This document shows, piece after piece, positions 496 through 64,000 of a stretch of DNA of 64,000 bases (position 1 is its first letter; each line of letters opens with the position of its first letter). The stretch lies in IMG/VR virus record IMGVR_UViG_3300025769_000092; one strand, given 5' to 3'. Source of the stretch: an uncultured virus (IMG/VR IMGVR_UViG_3300025769_000092) (lineage: Duplodnaviria > Heunggongvirae > Uroviricota > Caudoviricetes). A program made the translations under genes and the position numbers. The notes beneath the pieces are model-generated. The model saw nothing but the letters and a program-made list of their open reading frames with translations, was not told where the DNA came from and searched no databases.

Positions 496-939
496 ATGAA
501 TAAATTATCAGTTAATAAAAAAGCGTATTATGATTACAATGTAATTGATAATTACACTGCTGGAATTCAACTTATTGGTTCTGAAATAAAACCTATTAAA
601 AATGGTAATGTCTCTATTAAAGAAGGTTACTGTTACATAAGAAATGGTGAAGTTTTAGTTAAAGGGATGCATGTCTCCCCAAACGATAAGAGTAATAAAT
701 ATGATGCTCATGACCCATATCGTGAGAGAAAGTTATTACTAAATAAAAAAGAAATAGATAAATTAAATAAGGGTGTTGAGAGTAAGGGTATGACTATAAT
801 ACCTCTTAATTTGTTTATTACTAGTACTGGTCTTATAAAATTAACTATAGGGTTATGTAGTGGTAAAAAGAATTATGATAAAAGAGAAAGTATTAAAACA
901 AAAGATATCCAGAGGGACTTGGATAGAAGATTTAAATAA
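496..939 (+). CDS. smpB: SsrA-binding protein SmpB
   Basis: NKKAYYDY, AGIQLIGSEIK, RERKLLLNKKEI, GKKNYDKRESIK motifs. Confidence 0.95.
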   Translation: MNKLSVNKKAYYDYNVIDNYTAGIQLIGSEIKPIKNGNVSIKEGYCYIRNGEVLVKGMHVSPNDKSNKYDAHDPYRERKLLLNKKEIDKLNKGVESKGMTIIPLNLFITSTGLIKLTIGLCSGKKNYDKRESIKTKDIQRDLDRRFK

Positions 940-966: not shown

Positions 967-1902
967 ATGAGACCATTAAAGATAACACAAGCATTTACAA
1001 ATAGAAGTAGCGAATCATTTAACACTTACTTAAAAGAAGTGTCTAAAATAGAAGCATTTAAATCACCAAGTGATGAAGCTGAAGTGGCTATGAAAGCTTT
1101 TAAATATAGAAATATATATGAAAAATGTGAAGATAAGGAAGAAGGTCAAGTATATATGGACCAAGCTGAAGTAGCTATAGAAGAGTTGGTTAAGAGAAAC
1201 CTTAGATTTGTAATTAGTGTTGCTAAGCAATATACTAAAAATGGTGCATCTTTAGAAGATTTAGTTAATGAAGGTAATTCTGGTTTATTAGAAGCCGCTA
1301 GGAGATTCGACCCAACTACAGGTAACAAATTTATATCCTATGCTGTATGGTATGTTAGGAAAGATATCCTAGCTTTTTTATCTAAAAATACTAGGACTAT
1401 TAAATTACCAACAAACAAAATTAACTTAATGACTGACTTTAAAAATAAAGTGGACCAATGCAAACAAAAATTACAAAGGGAAGTTGAATTGGAAGATTTG
1501 TTAGGTAATATTGAAGGTTATAGTGATAAACAAATTAAAGACATGGTTGCTATAATGGAATCAAAAGTAGTTTCAGCTGATGCGCCTACTATGTTTGAAT
1601 CAGACTCAAGTGAAACCTTATACAACACTATTGAATCAAAGGAATTCGCAGACACAGACCATTTAGTTGTAGGTGATTCATCAAGACGAGTTTTGGAGAA
1701 CCTATTAGAAACTTTGAGTCCAAGAGATAAACATATTATGAAATTATACTATGGTTTAGATGGTAGAATACCTATGAATTTACACGAGGTAGGTACTGAG
1801 TTGGGACTAACCAGGGAAGCAATAAGACAAATAAAAGAGAAATCATTGAAAAAATTAAGAGTGGCATCTAAAAGATTTGGTTTGGAGACTGATATGTTTT
1901 AA
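967..1902 (+). CDS. RpoD/SigA-family RNA polymerase sigma factor (Bacteroidota-type, no region 1.1)
   Basis: NLRFVISVAKQY, DLVNEGNSGL, FDPTTGNKFISYAVWYVR, region 4 LGLTREAIRQIKEK. Confidence 0.92.
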   Translation: MRPLKITQAFTNRSSESFNTYLKEVSKIEAFKSPSDEAEVAMKAFKYRNIYEKCEDKEEGQVYMDQAEVAIEELVKRNLRFVISVAKQYTKNGASLEDLVNEGNSGLLEAARRFDPTTGNKFISYAVWYVRKDILAFLSKNTRTIKLPTNKINLMTDFKNKVDQCKQKLQREVELEDLLGNIEGYSDKQIKDMVAIMESKVVSADAPTMFESDSSETLYNTIESKEFADTDHLVVGDSSRRVLENLLETLSPRDKHIMKLYYGLDGRIPMNLHEVGTELGLTREAIRQIKEKSLKKLRVASKRFGLETDMF

Positions 1903-28456: not shown

Positions 28457-28529
28457 ATAATAGGGGAGGAATGTAAAAGTTTCTCCCTTTTTATTTGCAT
28501 AATTAAAATAAAAGTTATATCTTTACACT

Positions 28530-28718
28530 ATGAGAGATTTATTTGAAACATACGAAAAACTTCCAAAAGAAGTGCAAGAGATTATTAATGACTTCAGTGA
28601 AGCTGATAAAAATTATAATAACTGTCAAGACTTAATTGAAGCACTAGAAGAAGTTGGTTATACATGTGATTATGGTTTGGATGCCACACCATATGATTTG
28701 AAAAAACTTAATAAATAG
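28530..28718 (+). CDS. hypothetical protein
   Basis: GYTCDYGLDA motif; own promoter. Confidence 0.7.
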   Translation: MRDLFETYEKLPKEVQEIINDFSEADKNYNNCQDLIEALEEVGYTCDYGLDATPYDLKKLNK

Positions 28719-28926
28719 TTTGGTAGATTAAAAAAGATTTTGTATCTTTATACTATAAGATTAAGAAATGAAAAAAATTAAAAGTATTATAGAAAACATT
28801 CAAGTAATAGTATTCTTGTTTATAGCAAGAGTAAGTGGAATGTTTGACGCTGATGACGAAATAAACAGCTAAAAAAAGTTTCGAAAAGATTTGGTAGTTT
28901 AAAATAAATTACTTATCTTTACAACA

Positions 28927-29527
28927 GTTCTTTGAAAAATATGCATAGGAGAAGTTTACCTGTAAGGTTTACAGGACCTCTAAACATCGATTGCCTCTGG
29001 ACGAGCTACTAACCGCAATGCGCAACCAAAGCTTGTAACCAACTGTATTAAGGGTGCCCTTGACGCAGCACTACTCTCGAGTAGAAAAAGTTACAGCAGC
29101 AAAGCCTCTTCGTGTTATCTAACGGTGCACGCTACATAATCGGATGTTAACGTTAACAGCTAAATACGGTAAACTTTTCTGACTCAAGGTTCAAGAGTAT
29201 AAATAGAGCGGCTAAAGCTAAGCCGTGGGACCAAGGAACAGCTTAAGGGACCTCAGTTTCTAGTGGAACGACTATTAACAGGCCAATGGGGTCTCTTAGC
29301 TCTTCTGTTTTAGAATTCATTCTAGAATGCATATTTAGTACTAATTTAAATTAATACTGATGAAAAATTAAAATATAAATTCAGAGACCACCTAGCCGCA
29401 GCGCTAGCTGTAGACGAGATGGGCTTGCCTGGGCCATTAAACCAGGTGCATGATTATAAGTTGGGGAGTGGTTACCCCGTGATTAATGAGGAAAGGAGCT
29501 CCGCTATTACAGCGGGGCTTTTTTTTT
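28927..29527 (+). ncRNA. candidate large (~600 nt) structured ncRNA of unknown class
   Basis: own promoter, boxA-like gttctttgaaaa, no ORF, elevated GC, many long-range stems, terminator 29496-29527. Confidence 0.7.
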
Positions 29528-29615
29528 GTTATTTATTTTAAAATGCTAACAATAGTATGTTGTGTGGTTAAATATAATATTGTATATTTGTACTGTAACA
29601 TTAAAACAATATATT

Positions 29616-29768
29616 ATGAAAGATTTATTAGAAGAAGAACCCCTATTTATTTGCAACAGTTGCCATGAACATTTTCCTAGAGAAGAAATGGACTTTGATG
29701 TTGACGATGACCAAGACTTATGCAAGACTTGCAACTACCAAAGTTATAATGAGGGACCATACGGATAA
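29616..29768 (+). CDS. small zinc-finger protein
   Basis: CNSC...CKTC; start adjusted. Confidence 0.6.
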   Translation: MKDLLEEEPLFICNSCHEHFPREEMDFDVDDDQDLCKTCNYQSYNEGPYG

Positions 29769-29841
29769 AATAAACTATAAATAATTTGGTAAAGTAAATA
29801 TAATACTGTATATTTGTATTATAACATTAAAACAAAAGATT

Positions 29842-30126
29842 ATGGCGGGACATTTACCAATAGGTCAAAGCGGATTTGACCATGTAATAGGAAGTATTAT
29901 TAAAAGAGAAGATATACTAAAGTTGGAGGATTTCAAAAGGGTATTTAATAATGAATTAAATTGTTATATACAGAAGCTACCAACACATGAATATCAAATG
30001 AATGAAGAACATGGAAAGGAAGATGACCTGGTGGTTTATTTCTATAAATTAGATGTTGATGATTATTCTTATGAAGTTCATATAGATAAAGATACAAAAG
30101 TTAATCAAGTTTATTTGGTAATGTAA
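29842..30126 (+). CDS. hypothetical protein
   Basis: ORF with own promoter. Confidence 0.7.
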   Translation: MAGHLPIGQSGFDHVIGSIIKREDILKLEDFKRVFNNELNCYIQKLPTHEYQMNEEHGKEDDLVVYFYKLDVDDYSYEVHIDKDTKVNQVYLVM

Positions 30127-43696: not shown

Positions 43697-45400
43697 CTAT
43701 ATGATAAAGCTATATAGGTGGTATGGATTAATTTGTTTATGGTTTGTAAATTTATTAACCATTTTTTTAAGGACTAGTCTTTTAAGTCCTCTGGAAGATG
43801 CGTCAATAATTTCATTAGCCTTTTCTTTAATTTTTTGATTAGATTCATAGATGTATAGTTCAGTCATATACTTATGAGTTAAGTCTTTAGTTTTAGTAGC
43901 TCTAAGTAATGCGCTTTCACTAGCATATATTTCAATAATAATATCGGACATTGATAATAGTATTTCTTGTTCTTTAGCCAATTCTTTTCCGAATCTCTTA
44001 TATAGAGTAAAGATTAAAAGACTAGAAATCATCTTATGATTATTAATTAATTTGATTCCATTGTATGAGCATTTGAAGAAATCGGTAATTAATTTAAGGA
44101 ATGATTTTTTAACCATAGCATCAATAGATATATCTTTATTTTTAATCTTCTTTAATACTTGGCCAACCAATAGCATTCTGTTAATCTCATTTGTACCTTC
44201 ATAAATTCTACTAATTCTAGCATCTCTATATGCTCTTTCGATTGGGTATTCTGCTGAGTACCCCATACCACCATGACATTGTATAGCTTCATCAGCTACA
44301 TAGTCTAATACTTCAGAACCATGTACTTTAGCGATAGCACACTCAATAGCGTATTCACTAGTTGCTTTTACGATACCTAATTTTTTATTTTTTAAGGATT
44401 CGACACATAGTTGAGTTTCTTTACTTCTATTTTCAATATCTTGACCAGCTCTATACATAAGACTTTCGGAAGCGAATGTTTTAGTTTTCATTCTAGCAAT
44501 CTTTTGCTGTATTGCACCGAATCTAGAGATAGATTTACCGAATTGTTTTCTTTCGTTAGTATATTGTTCAGTTTGTTCAATTAATTTTTTAGCACCACCT
44601 ATAGCTGAAGAGCATAGTTTAATTCTACCAATATTTAGTATGTTGAGTGCGATTTCAAAACCTTGTTGTCTTTTGCCCAATAGGTTTTCTCTAGGTACTT
44701 CAACATTTTCGTAATATATTTGTCTTGTTGAAGAACCTTTAATCCCTAGCTTAACTTCTTCTGGTCCCATTGTGATTCCAGGTGTTTTAGATTCTACAAT
44801 AAACGCTGAATGATTTTTATCGTTACCTATTTTTGCGAAGACAATCATAATATCAGCAAAGCCACCATTACTAATCCATATCTTTTGTCCGTTTAATATG
44901 TAATTGATTTTATCCTTAGATAATTTAGCTTTTGTTTTACCAGCATTAGCATCACTACCAGCTCCAGGTTCAGTTAAGCAGTAGCAACCTATTAGTTCAC
45001 CACTTGCTAAACCTGGAATATATTTTTCTTTTTGTTTTTTATTACCGTAATATAGGATTGGTAGTGTTCCAATTCCTGTATGCGCACCAAATGTAGTTCC
45101 AAATGAACCAGCGACACCAATGATATCTGCAATAAGCATTGAGGTATTAAATGTCATACCTAGCCCATACAAATCTTCTGGGATACTAACACCTAAAAGA
45201 CCTAGTTCACCAGCTTTTTTAAGTGTATCTTGTACTATTGTACCCTCTTGTTTTTCTATTTTATCTATATTAGCTAAAACTTCACGTTCAACAAATTCTT
45301 TTGTTGCATTGTACATCATTTTTTGTTCTTCGTTGAAGTCTTCAAAGGTGAAGATATCATTGTGTTTTGTTTTTTTAGTTAAAAACTGTGCGCCTTTCAT
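43697..45400 (-). CDS. acyl-CoA dehydrogenase
   Basis: YCLTEPGAGSDA, LNGQKIWISNG, KLGIKGSST, QCHGGMGY, IYEGTNEINR. Confidence 0.95.
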   Translation of the reverse strand: MKGAQFLTKKTKHNDIFTFEDFNEEQKMMYNATKEFVEREVLANIDKIEKQEGTIVQDTLKKAGELGLLGVSIPEDLYGLGMTFNTSMLIADIIGVAGSFGTTFGAHTGIGTLPILYYGNKKQKEKYIPGLASGELIGCYCLTEPGAGSDANAGKTKAKLSKDKINYILNGQKIWISNGGFADIMIVFAKIGNDKNHSAFIVESKTPGITMGPEEVKLGIKGSSTRQIYYENVEVPRENLLGKRQQGFEIALNILNIGRIKLCSSAIGGAKKLIEQTEQYTNERKQFGKSISRFGAIQQKIARMKTKTFASESLMYRAGQDIENRSKETQLCVESLKNKKLGIVKATSEYAIECAIAKVHGSEVLDYVADEAIQCHGGMGYSAEYPIERAYRDARISRIYEGTNEINRMLLVGQVLKKIKNKDISIDAMVKKSFLKLITDFFKCSYNGIKLINNHKMISSLLIFTLYKRFGKELAKEQEILLSMSDIIIEIYASESALLRATKTKDLTHKYMTELYIYESNQKIKEKANEIIDASSRGLKRLVLKKMVNKFTNHKQINPYHLYSFII

Positions 45401-45413
45401 TTGTTTATTTTTT

Positions 45414-46439
45414 TTAGTTAGCTATTACTAGTTGTTCTACATCATATAAAACATTCGTTAATAATCTTGTTATTTTGTATGGGTCAGCATTAGATGCTGG
45501 TCTTCTATCTTCAAGGTAACCTTTCCAATCGTTAGTAACTAAACCAACTGGTATTCTAATTGACGCACCTCTATCGCTTTCACCCACACTAAATTTACTA
45601 ATGTGTTGTGTTTCATGGTCACCAGTTAATCTTTCTTCATTGGAAGAACCGTAGTCTGAAATAAAACTATCATGTCTTTCACTGAGTAGTTCACAAATCT
45701 CCATAATATATTCTTTACCACCTTCAGTTCTCATTCTTTCATTTGAGAAGTTAGTATGTAATCCACTACCATTCCAATCACCTTTTACTGGTTTTGGGTG
45801 ATATTCTACATGAACATTATGTTCTTCACATATTCTATTGAGAATATATCTACTTAACCATAAATCATCTGAAGCTGTTTTTGCTCCCTTACCTAGTAAT
45901 TGATATTCCCATTGTCCTATCATGACCTCAGCATTAATACCAGTTAGGTCTAATCCAGCTTCAATACACAAGTCTAGATGTTCTTCAGCGATTTCTCTAC
46001 CAACAACATTTCTATTACCTACACCACAATAGTATTTACCTTGTGGGTCTGGGTTACCATTTGATGGAAATCCTAGTGGTTTTCCATTTTCACCTACTAG
46101 TGTATATTCTTGTTCAAACCCAAACCAGTTTTCATTATCATCTGATTTAATTTTGTGTCTAGAGTTAGTTTCATGTGGTGTATTATCTGGATTTAACACT
46201 TCACACATTACTAGATACGCATTAACTCTTTGTGGGTCTTCAATAACTCTAACTGGCTTTAATAGACAATCTGATTTACTACCTTCGGCTTGTTTAGTTG
46301 AAGAACCATCATAACTCCAAGTTGGCAAATCCGTTAATGTAGATTCTATATTATTTGATTCAATTATTTTTGTTTTACTTCTAAGATTTGGTTCTGGAGT
46401 ATATCCATCTAACCAAATGTATTCAAATTTATATTTCAT
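45414..46439 (-). CDS. glnII: glutamine synthetase type II
   Basis: EYIWLDG, LRSKT, WSYDGSST, GFEQEY, NAEVMIGQWEYQ, WNGSGLHTNFS, YLEDRRPASNADPY. Confidence 0.92.
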   Translation of the reverse strand: MKYKFEYIWLDGYTPEPNLRSKTKIIESNNIESTLTDLPTWSYDGSSTKQAEGSKSDCLLKPVRVIEDPQRVNAYLVMCEVLNPDNTPHETNSRHKIKSDDNENWFGFEQEYTLVGENGKPLGFPSNGNPDPQGKYYCGVGNRNVVGREIAEEHLDLCIEAGLDLTGINAEVMIGQWEYQLLGKGAKTASDDLWLSRYILNRICEEHNVHVEYHPKPVKGDWNGSGLHTNFSNERMRTEGGKEYIMEICELLSERHDSFISDYGSSNEERLTGDHETQHISKFSVGESDRGASIRIPVGLVTNDWKGYLEDRRPASNADPYKITRLLTNVLYDVEQLVIAN

Positions 46440-58204: not shown

Positions 58205-58525
58205 ATGAATTTAGAAATAACAGACAGCGAAATTGACAACCTTTTATCTAAAGGTGGTATAACAGTATTAGATTTTTGGGCACCATGGTGTGGGCCTTGT
58301 AAGAGTTATGGACCTATAATTGAAGGGTTCGCTAAAGATAATGAAAGTAGGTCTGATTTACACATCAGAAAAATTAATGTAGATGAGAATCCAGTAATGG
58401 CTCAGAAACATGGTATTAGAAGTATACCTACTACAATTATTTTTAAAGATGGGCAACTAATAACAAAAGTTCCTGGTGTGATACAAAAAAATAAATTAGA
58501 TGAATTTGTGGGTAATTTATCTTAA
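58205..58525 (+). CDS. trxA: thioredoxin
   Basis: DFWAPWCGPCK, INVDEN, IRSIPT. Confidence 0.93.
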   Translation: MNLEITDSEIDNLLSKGGITVLDFWAPWCGPCKSYGPIIEGFAKDNESRSDLHIRKINVDENPVMAQKHGIRSIPTTIIFKDGQLITKVPGVIQKNKLDEFVGNLS

Positions 58526-62075: not shown

Positions 62076-64000
62076 TTATGATAAGATTATTTTTTTAGTT
62101 TTCTTATCGTAAGATATTTTAATGGTCGCTCCTAACTTATATTCATCGTTAAGGACCGCATCAGTTACTGGGTCTTCAATATGTCTTTGTATTGCTCTGT
62201 TAAGAGGTCTAGCACCATATGCTTCGTCATAACCTTGTTCTGATACATATTCTATCGCTGATTTATTAACTTTAATTTTAAAACCAATCTCTTCAATCCT
62301 TTTATTAAGTTTATTCAATTCATTATGTATAATAATGTTGATAGCATCCTTTTTTAGACTGTTAAAAACTATTGTTTCATCAATTCTATTAAGAAATTCT
62401 GGTTTGAATTTTTTCTTAAGCGCTTTCTCGATGATAGCTCTAGCTTTTTCTTCTTCATTAACTATTGCAGCATCAGTTTTGAATCCCATATCTTTACCAA
62501 AACTATTTAGTTCTGTTACACCTACATTTGAAGTTAGTATAATTAAAGTGTTTTTAAAATTAACTTTTCTACCAAGACCATCAGTAAGTGTACCTTCATC
62601 TAAAAGTTGTAACAATAGATTGAATACGTCTGGATGCGCTTTTTCTATTTCATCAAATAACACAACGCTATAAGGTTTTCTCCTAACTTTTTCCGTTAAT
62701 TGACCACCTTCTTCGTACCCTACATACCCTGGTGGTGGACCAATTAATCTAGAAACACTATGTTTTTCCATGTATTCAGACATATCCATTCTAACCATAG
62801 CCTCTGTATCACCAAATATGTGTTCAGCCAATAATTTTGATAGGTATGTTTTACCAACACCTGTTGGTCCTAAGAAAATAAATGAACCAATAGGTTTGTC
62901 TTGGTCTTTTATTCCTAATCTATTACGTTTTATTGACCTAGTTACTTTAAGTACTGCATCGTCTTGACCTATAACCTTACCCATCAAGTCTTTATCCATA
63001 CTCATTAACTTTTTATTTTCTTGAGAAGAAATCTTATTGACTGGAATACCAGTCATCATAGAAACTACTTCAGACACTAAATCAACATCAACAATAGTTC
63101 TTTTTTTGTCAAGTGATTCCATCCACTCAGTTTTAGCCACTTCTAACTCTTCGTTAACTTTTCTTTCAGAGTCTCTAAGTTTTGCAGCTTCTTCGTATCT
63201 CTGTTGTTTAACTACATCATGTTTTTTCTTATTAATACTTTCTTTTTTATTTTCTAATTTTTTGATATTTTCTGGTGCTTCTTGATTTACATTAGTTGTT
63301 GCCCCAGCTTCATCTAATATATCAATAGCTTTATCTGGCATGGCTCTATCAGAAATATATCTATTAGACATCTTAACTATTTCTTCAATTGCATCTTCAG
63401 TATAAGACACTTTGTGATGATTTTCGTATTTCTCTTTAATATTATTTAATATTTCTACAGTTTCGTCTGTGGTTGGTTCATCCACTAAAACTTGTTGGAA
63501 TCTTCTGGTTAATGCACCATCCTTCTCAATATTTTCTCTAAATTCGTCTAAAGTTGTTGCACCTATTACTTGTATTTCTCCTCTTGCTAAAGCTGGTTTG
63601 AAGATATTTGCAGCATCCATACCACCAGTAGCATTACCAGCACCAACAATTGTGTGTAGTTCATCTATAAAAAGTATTACATCTGAATTATCTTTAAGCT
63701 CATCTAATATAGCTTTCATTCTTTCTTCAAATTGTCCTCTATATTTGGTTCCAGCCACTATTGATGATAAATCAAGTGAATATATTCTTTTATCTAAAAT
63801 AGTTCTAGGTGCCTTTCCTTGTCTAATAAGCATAGCTAAACCTTCCACTATAGCGGTTTTACCAACTCCTGGTTCACCTATTAAAACTGGGTTATTCTTT
63901 TTTCTTCTAGATAAAATCTGGGAAACTCTTTTAATTTCTTTAGTTCTACCAACTACTGGGTCTAGTAAATCACTTTCAGCAGATTTTGATATGTCTCTAC
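62076..64000 (-). CDS. clpC: ATP-dependent Clp protease ATP-binding subunit ClpC (5'-truncated by window)
   Basis: frame stays open past 63848 (LDPVVGR, RRKKNNPVLIGEPGVGKT); second Walker A GPTGVGKT; UVR motif; GARPL. Confidence 0.92.
   Translation of the reverse strand, partial: RDISKSAESDLLDPVVGRTKEIKRVSQILSRRKKNNPVLIGEPGVGKTAIVEGLAMLIRQGKAPRTILDKRIYSLDLSSIVAGTKYRGQFEERMKAILDELKDNSDVILFIDELHTIVGAGNATGGMDAANIFKPALARGEIQVIGATTLDEFRENIEKDGALTRRFQQVLVDEPTTDETVEILNNIKEKYENHHKVSYTEDAIEEIVKMSNRYISDRAMPDKAIDILDEAGATTNVNQEAPENIKKLENKKESINKKKHDVVKQQRYEEAAKLRDSERKVNEELEVAKTEWMESLDKKRTIVDVDLVSEVVSMMTGIPVNKISSQENKKLMSMDKDLMGKVIGQDDAVLKVTRSIKRNRLGIKDQDKPIGSFIFLGPTGVGKTYLSKLLAEHIFGDTEAMVRMDMSEYMEKHSVSRLIGPPPGYVGYEEGGQLTEKVRRKPYSVVLFDEIEKAHPDVFNLLLQLLDEGTLTDGLGRKVNFKNTLIILTSNVGVTELNSFGKDMGFKTDAAIVNEEEKARAIIEKALKKKFKPEFLNRIDETIVFNSLKKDAINIIIHNELNKLNKRIEEIGFKIKVNKSAIEYVSEQGYDEAYGARPLNRAIQRHIEDPVTDAVLNDEYKLGATIKISYDKKTKKIILS

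Follow-up and report, generated by a model that had tools for sequence, protein, structure and literature searches.

A conserved, highly structured non-coding RNA of about 600 nucleotides, headed by a boxA-like word, in an uncultured phage

Our analysis of a 64,000-nucleotide (nt) stretch of an uncultured virus of the Caudoviricetes (IMG/VR IMGVR_UViG_3300025769_000092), here called the window at its full length, confirmed a stand-alone gene for a non-coding RNA of about 600 nt at 28926-29528 on the plus strand. An earlier note on this DNA had proposed such an RNA with its own promoter at 28890-28921, a boxA-like signal resembling that of ribosomal RNA (rRNA) leaders, some 600 nt free of open reading frames (ORFs) and richer in G+C than the surroundings, and a strong terminator. 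All of these parts were borne out by the comparisons reported here, which extend to homologues of the RNA, to Bacteroidia rRNA leaders and to the known RNA families.

Locus and transcription unit

The RNA lies in an ORF-free gap of about 770 nt amid small plus-strand genes that each stand behind the same promoter-like word (28500-29900). This gap is the longest of the window without an ORF and also its most G+C-rich: the G+C content amounts to 0.40-0.44 (28900-29299), versus 0.235 immediately upstream and 0.275-0.305 downstream (about 0.28 nearby), and the GC skew moves from about +0.3 to about 0 at the RNA region. No ORF of at least 30 amino acids (aa) crosses the RNA region in any of three genetic codes (table 11, table 4 or TAG=Q). 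Coding through an alternative code was rejected, since neither table 4 nor TAG=Q opens a frame and TAG=Q gives no general lengthening of genes in the window. The transcription unit is defined by the following elements:

28890-28921, plus strand: promoter, with a −33 element TTTGGTA, an N17 spacer and a −7 box TATCTTTA at 28914-28921; kept in the homologues
28927-28938, plus strand: boxA word GTTCTTTGAAAA, 1 nt past the inferred start, at the extreme 5′ end of the transcript
29489-29527, plus strand: intrinsic terminator, a stem of 17 pairs followed by a run of nine T; kept in 12 of 12 homologues

The promoter is an exact copy of TTTGGTA-N17-TATNTTTR, a motif enriched in the window with 27 matches (at most one mismatch) versus 0.71 expected from shuffled sequences. 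Its sites (e.g. 20312, 24544, 28719, 28890, 29785, 30606 and 32417) mostly precede small plus-strand genes between 19 and 40 kb. The word fits the sigma-A layout of Bacteroidota. A −7 box of the form TAnnTTTG has been reported at −12 to −5 in Flavobacterium psychrophilum (PMC9723704), and from this placement relative to the start we infer that transcription begins near 28926. The terminator is the strongest terminator-like site in the neighbourhood. The promoter-derived start and the terminator therefore give a unit of about 28926-29528, or about 600 nt.

Homologues and the conserved fold

Twelve distinct sequences make up our homologue set: the window itself, one 158-kb viral contig (L001) and ten metagenome contigs. 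A neighbouring 151-aa protein led to 80 viral loci, among which L001 contains the RNA over its full length, with 80% identity. A 20-mer of the longest invariant block led to 12 metagenome loci with 11 full-length copies, one of which is identical to L001; L097 proved to be a chance match to the 20-mer and no homologue. The homologues represent about three lineages with 75-80% identity between them, and at this overall identity they still share invariant blocks of 20-36 nt. All loci are syntenic with flanking proteins that are 86-100% identical, and on account of this shared gene order and near-identity we assign them to one phage group. The homologues differ by insertions and deletions of 1 and 2 nt, and since these are not multiples of three there is no conserved reading frame in the RNA. 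One homologue, L090, carries group-1 sequence in the P5 arms (alignment A2 columns 120-200) and group-2 sequence elsewhere; this mosaic suggests that recombination between phage lineages may have taken place inside the RNA gene.

The distribution of the RNA was followed in several further collections. A blastn search against GenBank phages matched the promoter alone, in a crAss-like phage. On viral contigs, a scan with one conserved 19-mer returned nothing and a degenerate 22-mer returned the same L001 contig and no others, while two 17-mers gave the L001 contig and seven chance matches; one of these, L088, turned out to be a look-alike hairpin of the terminator region behind an ORF. Two matches from a scan of genome contigs were likewise discarded, L103 as a short chance match in a coding region and L104 as a sequence without a match to the family profile. 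The remaining 79 viral loci with the 151-aa protein contained no relatives of the RNA as judged by nhmmer, by a covariance model of its 170-nt core (R1) and by a scan for boxA together with an ORF-free region. R1 found nothing in four huge phages (Lak-A2, Lak-B5, LR756501 and LR756504), with the relative G001 as positive control at 1.4e-44, and its two matches in 151 sampled Bacteroidia genomes (per-genome E values of 0.035 and 0.096) are no more than expected by chance. There is no second copy of the RNA in the 158-kb relative.

A check for homologues and covariation, which the earlier note had put forward, was carried out with RNAalifold on the 12 sequences and gave 144 consensus pairs, 24 of them with compensatory changes. 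Paired cells make up 98.5%, versus 35-46% when the partners are slid by 1-3 columns, and the covariation score is 0.224 versus at most 0.062 when slid. On four of five structure measures none of 500 shuffles reached the observed value; the fifth, the count of further pair types, was reached by 499 of 500 and is not above the shuffles. The consensus fold contains many invariant G.U pairs, which identifies the plus strand as the RNA strand. The structure is conserved through compensatory substitutions, the mark of a structured non-coding RNA. The comparison shows a conserved two-domain fold, in which a 5′ domain of about 400 nt within nested long-range helices is joined through an AT-rich variable linker to a 3′ domain of about 95 nt:

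28937-28946 with 29327-29336, plus strand: end-closing helix, 5′ strand AAAUAUGCAU, 9-10 base pairs (bp) possible in 12 of 12 homologues
28949-29179, plus strand: core domain, closed by the 12-bp helix 28949-60/29168-79
28983-93 with 29137-48, plus strand: second long-range helix in the core
28998-29028, 29031-29097 (sub-hairpins 29043-68 and 29071-84) and 29098-29133, plus strand: core arms
29010-13 (UAAC) with 29114-17 (GUUA), plus strand: candidate loop-loop tertiary contact, with both strands changed in L001
29146-29157, plus strand: palindrome GUUAACGUUAAC, with core UAACGUUA at 29148-55
29182-98 and 29208-26, plus strand: two small hairpins, the second with one compensatory pair
29232-29239, plus strand: CAAGGAAC, alternative pairing partner of the boxA word (28927-34)
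29243-29299, plus strand: long hypervariable hairpin
29337-29394, plus strand: AT-rich linker of about 58 nt, shortened to about 13 nt in the six group-2 homologues (alignment A2 columns 451-506)
29395-29487, plus strand: 3′ domain of three hairpins with near-invariant loops, including GCCUGG-GCCAUUAAA-CCAGGU and UGGGG-AGUGGUUA-CCCCG

The three long-range helices that had been read from the single sequence all hold in the alignment, two of them with covariation and slight shifts of their ends. The end-closing helix 28937-46/29327-36 is formable in all 12 sequences. A helix given as 13 bp at 28948-60/29168-80 becomes 28949-60/29168-79, and six of its 12 pairs are compensatory; one given as 12 bp at 29244-55/29287-98 becomes 29243-55/29287-99 with 13 pairs, again six of them compensatory. 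Among the local hairpins of the earlier note, ctac/gtag covaries at two pairs and cggc/gccg at one, and cctgg/ccagg and gggg/cccc are conserved. The hairpin cctgtaa/ttacagg reads cctataa/ttatagg in L001, but pairs imperfectly in the six sequences of group 2 and is in competition with one end of the 12-bp helix. Compensatory pairs are also present in four inner core helices; the inner helices 28983-93/29137-48, 29031-39/29090-97, 29043-53/29058-68 and 29071-74/29081-84 are, together with the 12-bp helix and the long hairpin 29243-99, the best supported elements of the fold.

At the candidate contact 29010-13/29114-17, 48 of 48 cells are paired, versus 10-23 of 45-48 when slid; one position appears as A-U, G.U or G-C, and one C-G is replaced by U-A in L001. 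The palindrome lies largely in a single-stranded stretch: 29149-29167 is unpaired in both the minimum free energy and the consensus fold, and 29146-48 closes the helix 28983-93/29137-48. Its core UAACGUUA is invariant in 11 of the 12 homologues, with a C to A change in L090. The long hairpin 29243-99 is only 35-68% identical to the window outside the window's two closest relatives, and its two helices are 100% and 94% paired with 11 of 21 pairs compensatory. We also observed an invariant pyrimidine word CCUCU three times in the core (ACCUCUAAAC, GCCUCUGGAC and GCCUCUUCG), with GCUCUUCUG further on (28976-29110 and 29300-29306), and an invariant purine run GAGGAAAGGAG at the foot of the terminator.

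These data bear on two alternatives to a functional RNA product. If the region were a functionless spacer or what is left of a gene in decay, a single-sequence folding energy only modestly below that of shuffles would suit, but the covariation already speaks against such a reading: 24 pairs are compensatory, the hypervariable hairpin stays paired at 35-68% identity, and the invariant 20-36-nt blocks as well as promoter, boxA and terminator are all conserved. We regard it as scarcely credible. Alternatively, the transcript could be a structured primer or form the R-loop of a replication origin of the ColE1 RNA II or T4 ori type, with the AT-rich stretch 29337-94 as unwinding element. ColE1 RNA II, at about 550 nt, is of a similar order of size and structure, the promoter is followed by an AT-rich stretch, and DNA palindromes are present. 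However, the AT-rich stretch is largely absent in six of the 12 homologues, the transcript ends at an intrinsic terminator, and the GC skew has no local switch. Moreover, the conserved G.U pairs and compensatory changes indicate selection on the RNA fold over the full length, and we consider an origin function improbable.

Two small genes flank the RNA. Upstream, a hydrophobic ORF of 34 aa (28768-28872, plus strand) with its own promoter at 28719-28750 lies between a 62-aa gene and the RNA promoter and is also found in L096. Directly downstream, an ORF of about 50 aa (29618-29768, plus strand) has two CxxC pairs and is zinc-ribbon-like. Group 1 and L001 have this ORF and group 2 does not, and it is therefore no conserved partner of the RNA.

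The boxA word and the synthesis of the RNA

For comparison with host leaders we sampled 41 Bacteroidia genomes and examined, for each of 19 complete 16S loci, the preceding 500 nt (a twentieth, truncated 16S was excluded). The 9-mer GTTCTTTGA of the boxA word is found at −82 to −141 from 16S in 14 of the 19 loci, and the full 12-mer GTTCTTTGAAAA is identical in six. One leader has the variant GATCTTTGA, and four are without a boxA word, two of those from one 1.3-Mb genome. The boxA resemblance seen in the earlier note is thus confirmed, and GTTCTTTGAAAA is the boxA word of Bacteroidia rRNA leaders. Beyond the boxA word, the RNA has no similarity to the sampled Bacteroidia rRNA loci.

The 9-mer GTTCTTTGA is retained in 11 of the 12 homologues. 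Within the window GTTCTTTGAAAA has a single exact copy, and an exact boxA stands behind just one of the 27 promoter-motif matches, that of the untranslated gene. The word thus shares with rRNA-leader boxA elements its sequence, its promoter-proximal position and its conservation, in a phage whose host class is deduced from the promoter type and from the relatives of its SmpB protein. In three of the 12 homologues (L091, at 2025-2112, L095 and L100), an extra stem-closed module of about 85 nt is inserted between promoter and boxA; it holds UAACGUU, like the conserved palindrome of the RNA, and folds with a z score of −1.72.

The arrangement resembles an rRNA operon leader in several respects. 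A host-type promoter is followed at once by the Bacteroidia boxA word, the product is untranslated and ends at an intrinsic terminator, and a large structured RNA is enclosed by a helix whose 5′ strand comes directly behind boxA and whose 3′ strand lies about 390 nt further on. In contrast to an rRNA operon, the enclosed RNA has no rRNA similarity, no boxB or boxC was identified, and the promoter is of the general early type of the phage, unlike that of rRNA. A boxA in a non-rRNA transcript is known from the suhB leader of E. coli and Salmonella, where it is reported to recruit Nus factors (bioRxiv 10.1101/091223). While the elements described there are short leader elements of bacterial mRNAs, the boxA of the window heads a stand-alone large phage RNA; the authors' own boxA search, as they describe it, left non-coding RNAs out (bioRxiv 10.1101/091223).

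A 5′ boxA on an early transcript recalls the lambda nut sites, and the neighbouring genes all point in the same direction; the RNA could thus be a cis-acting leader or antiterminator of the nut or put kind that modifies RNA polymerase for the genes downstream. Against this stand the strong terminator, conserved in 12 of 12 homologues, and the promoters of the next genes, with a −7 box TATATTTG before the start at 29618 and an exact motif at 29785-29816. Furthermore, about 560 nt of conserved ornate structure far exceeds the need of any known antiterminator, three homologues carry the extra module ahead of boxA, and the two groups have different genes downstream. We therefore rate a cis-acting role as unlikely.

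On balance, and with confidence slightly better than even, we favour the view that the locus encodes, as a gene of its own among the early genes of a jumbo phage, a richly structured non-coding RNA of some 600 nt from a hitherto undescribed family, and that its synthesis borrows the rRNA antitermination of the host. The role of boxA in rRNA operons is established (PMC4807359), as is boxA-dependent Nus action on non-rRNA targets (bioRxiv 10.1101/091223). In the proposed course of events, the boxA at the emerging 5′ end would be bound by the host proteins NusB and NusE (S10), which together with NusA, NusG and SuhB would convert RNA polymerase into an rRNA-type antitermination and chaperone complex. 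This complex would shield the long untranslated transcript from Rho while the RNA folds co-transcriptionally, and it may help the distant helix strands to meet. The strong intrinsic terminator would still set the 3′ end; an rRNA-type antitermination complex is not expected to override intrinsic terminators. The end-closing helix directly after boxA would correspond to the leader-trailer layout of an rRNA operon.

Several observations weigh against this proposal or against parts of it. In L001 the boxA reads GTTATTTG, with A replacing C at position 4, a C that has been reported as critical in E. coli (bioRxiv 10.1101/091223). Matches to boxA with at most one mismatch number three in the window versus 4.99 expected, so the word is no rarer than chance. 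We nevertheless give it weight because it lies directly behind the promoter, is conserved and is unique among the 27 promoter matches. In the mature RNA, boxA could instead be paired with 29232-39: RNAalifold favours this pairing of 28927-34 over the end-closing helix 28937-46/29327-36, and the two are mutually exclusive unless a pseudoknot forms. The alternative pairing comprises eight pairs, of which four show one-sided A/G changes opposite U, none is compensatory and one is broken in L001. The end-closing helix itself likewise has no compensatory change, all its changes being pairing-compatible (U-A to U.G, or a gained G-C), and the 3′ domain, 84-97% identical across the homologues, is also without compensatory changes. 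The single-sequence fold is only modestly better than expected (z −1.92, with 0 of 20 shuffles as good; minus strand z −1.59), and our case for structure is based on the comparison of homologues and not on folding energy. Finally, the independent covariation events are few, as the homologues come from about three lineages of one phage group.

Known RNA families, genome context and possible function

The whole 64-kb window had no match at gathering scores when compared with Rfam 15 by cmscan, a comparison that the earlier note had suggested. When 28700-29700 was searched permissively (E≤10), ten weak matches appeared, of which nine fell on the hairpin region of the terminator and the tenth upstream on the minus strand. 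Neither at gathering score nor at E≤10 was there a match to the models of ROOL (RF03087), GOLLD (RF01998), OLE, raiA, manA or HEARO, nor to those of transfer-messenger RNA (tmRNA), RNase P, 6S or group I and II introns. These results agree with the earlier view that the RNA is neither an RNase P RNA nor a group II intron; unlike an intron, it is framed by a promoter and a terminator of its own and is not flanked by a split ORF. ARAGORN found no tRNA or tmRNA in the window, and none in the RNA region at default, 90% or 80% thresholds; two permuted-tmRNA calls at the 70% threshold were implausible. The absence of tmRNA features stated in the earlier note is thus upheld by both ARAGORN and Rfam: neither a tRNA-like domain (acceptor stem, T-arm and CCA end) nor a tag frame was found in the RNA, and there is no sequence similarity between the RNA and the tmRNA loci of huge phages. 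A limited literature search yielded no description of such an RNA or of boxA-headed phage RNAs. We conclude that the RNA is a new family within a known kind, the large ornate phage RNAs of unknown function, with an rRNA-type boxA as an added feature. Of the earlier suggestion of a ROOL/GOLLD-like member or a new class, membership thus falls for want of an Rfam match; since the tested known families were not matched, the new class is the branch that remains.

ROOL and GOLLD are large ornate RNAs of phages and prophages that have been reported to form RNA-only nanocages (PMC12286853). Like them, the RNA of the window is phage-encoded, about 600 nt long and rich in helices and long-range pairings, with conserved domains set apart by a variable linker and with a self-complementary word, likewise conserved, in a single-stranded stretch. 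These likenesses would also be expected if it were a very divergent member of a known large class (ROOL, GOLLD, OLE, raiA, manA, HEARO, RNase P or group I/II intron) missed by the Rfam models. The variable linker lies about 410-470 nt from the 5′ end, compared with a linker at nt 414-464 in ROOL env-120, and ROOL chains are reported to be bridged by Watson-Crick pairing of the same sequence (PMC12286853), as the self-complementary word might allow. However, no Rfam model was matched at gathering score in the 64 kb, and the matches at E≤10 over 1 kb were terminator-like only. The phage context of ROOL and GOLLD is present here, but whereas many of their loci lie near tRNA genes, there are none in the window or in the 158-kb relative. 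In addition, there are no exon-like flanks, boxA is present, and the host appears to be of Bacteroidota type and not from the Firmicutes or Lactobacillales. Membership in a known class is thus quite unlikely in our view.

The genome context is that of a large phage. Pfam and PHROG searches within 5 kb on either side of the RNA found no informative family, and the other ORFs scanned are mostly small with function unassigned. Further away, the window encodes:

496-939, plus strand: SmpB (Pfam E 2e-52)
967-1902, plus strand: sigma-70 family protein with regions 2 and 4 (PHROG "RNA polymerase sigma factor"), right after SmpB
43697-45400, minus strand: acyl-CoA dehydrogenase
45414-46439, minus strand: glutamine-synthetase-like protein
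58205-58525, plus strand: thioredoxin
62076-63848, minus strand: ClpB-like ATPase

The first ~970 nt of the minus-strand block 43697-46439 share 68% DNA identity with huge phages whose sizes are 634-735 kb (LR756501/3, LR756502 and LR745206). From a completeness rating of 48% for the 158-kb relative G001, the phage genome is probably larger than 300 kb. The closest phage SmpB proteins, at 46-51% identity, are those of the Lak megaphages of Prevotella and of other huge phages. Promoter type, boxA and SmpB relatives together point to a Bacteroidota host.

SmpB raises the possibility that the RNA is its partner, either as an aberrant or permuted tmRNA or as an SmpB-binding decoy. The gene occurs both in the window and in G001 (331-762), yet neither has a recognisable tmRNA; in the 158 kb of G001, no tmRNA, tRNA or Rfam family was found. 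All four huge phages tested among those with the closest SmpB (Lak-A2, Lak-B5, LR756501 and LR756504) have a tmRNA match at E≤0.01, three of them above the family cut-off. Moreover, the invariant loop AGUGGUUA is one that we take to resemble a tRNA D-loop. Unlike the tmRNAs of those huge phages, the RNA of the window lacks a tRNA-like domain and a tag frame and matches no tmRNA model, its indels shift every frame so that no short frame is conserved, and the SmpB gene is 28 kb away; a normal tmRNA may lie in the unseen half of G001. A role as SmpB partner is therefore very improbable. The question of SmpB binding, raised in the earlier note, gains some point because the phage encodes SmpB, though nothing in the RNA looks like tmRNA. 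Each of the alternatives weighed here is contradicted by at least one tested feature.

As for its function, the mature RNA might be a trans-acting scaffold, with invariant loops that bind a protein of the phage or of the host, or with an unpaired palindrome through which copies of the RNA join. This is a guess by analogy, and the most speculative part of our proposal; it draws on the invariant 3′ loops, the palindrome core UAACGUUA and the ROOL-like variable linker. A bolder version, to which we would give a fairly low chance, is that Bacteroidota jumbo phages use host boxA and Nus factors to make and fold, in the manner of a small rRNA operon, ornate RNAs of a new self-assembling class; the product would be a cage or oligomer of RNA only, or else would form the core of a new ribonucleoprotein of the phage.

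ROOL and GOLLD are among the most puzzling bacterial RNAs, being of ribozyme size, forming cages larger than the ribosome and having no known function. A further family, unrelated to these two and carried by jumbo phages whose hosts belong to another phylum, would broaden the class of ornate RNAs and would offer structural biology a new candidate of about 600 nt with a secondary structure supported by covariation. Moreover, the exact host rRNA boxA at its 5′ end is a testable clue to its synthesis. It suggests how long untranslated phage RNAs may escape Rho, and that the rRNA antitermination complex of the host may chaperone the folding of phage RNAs.

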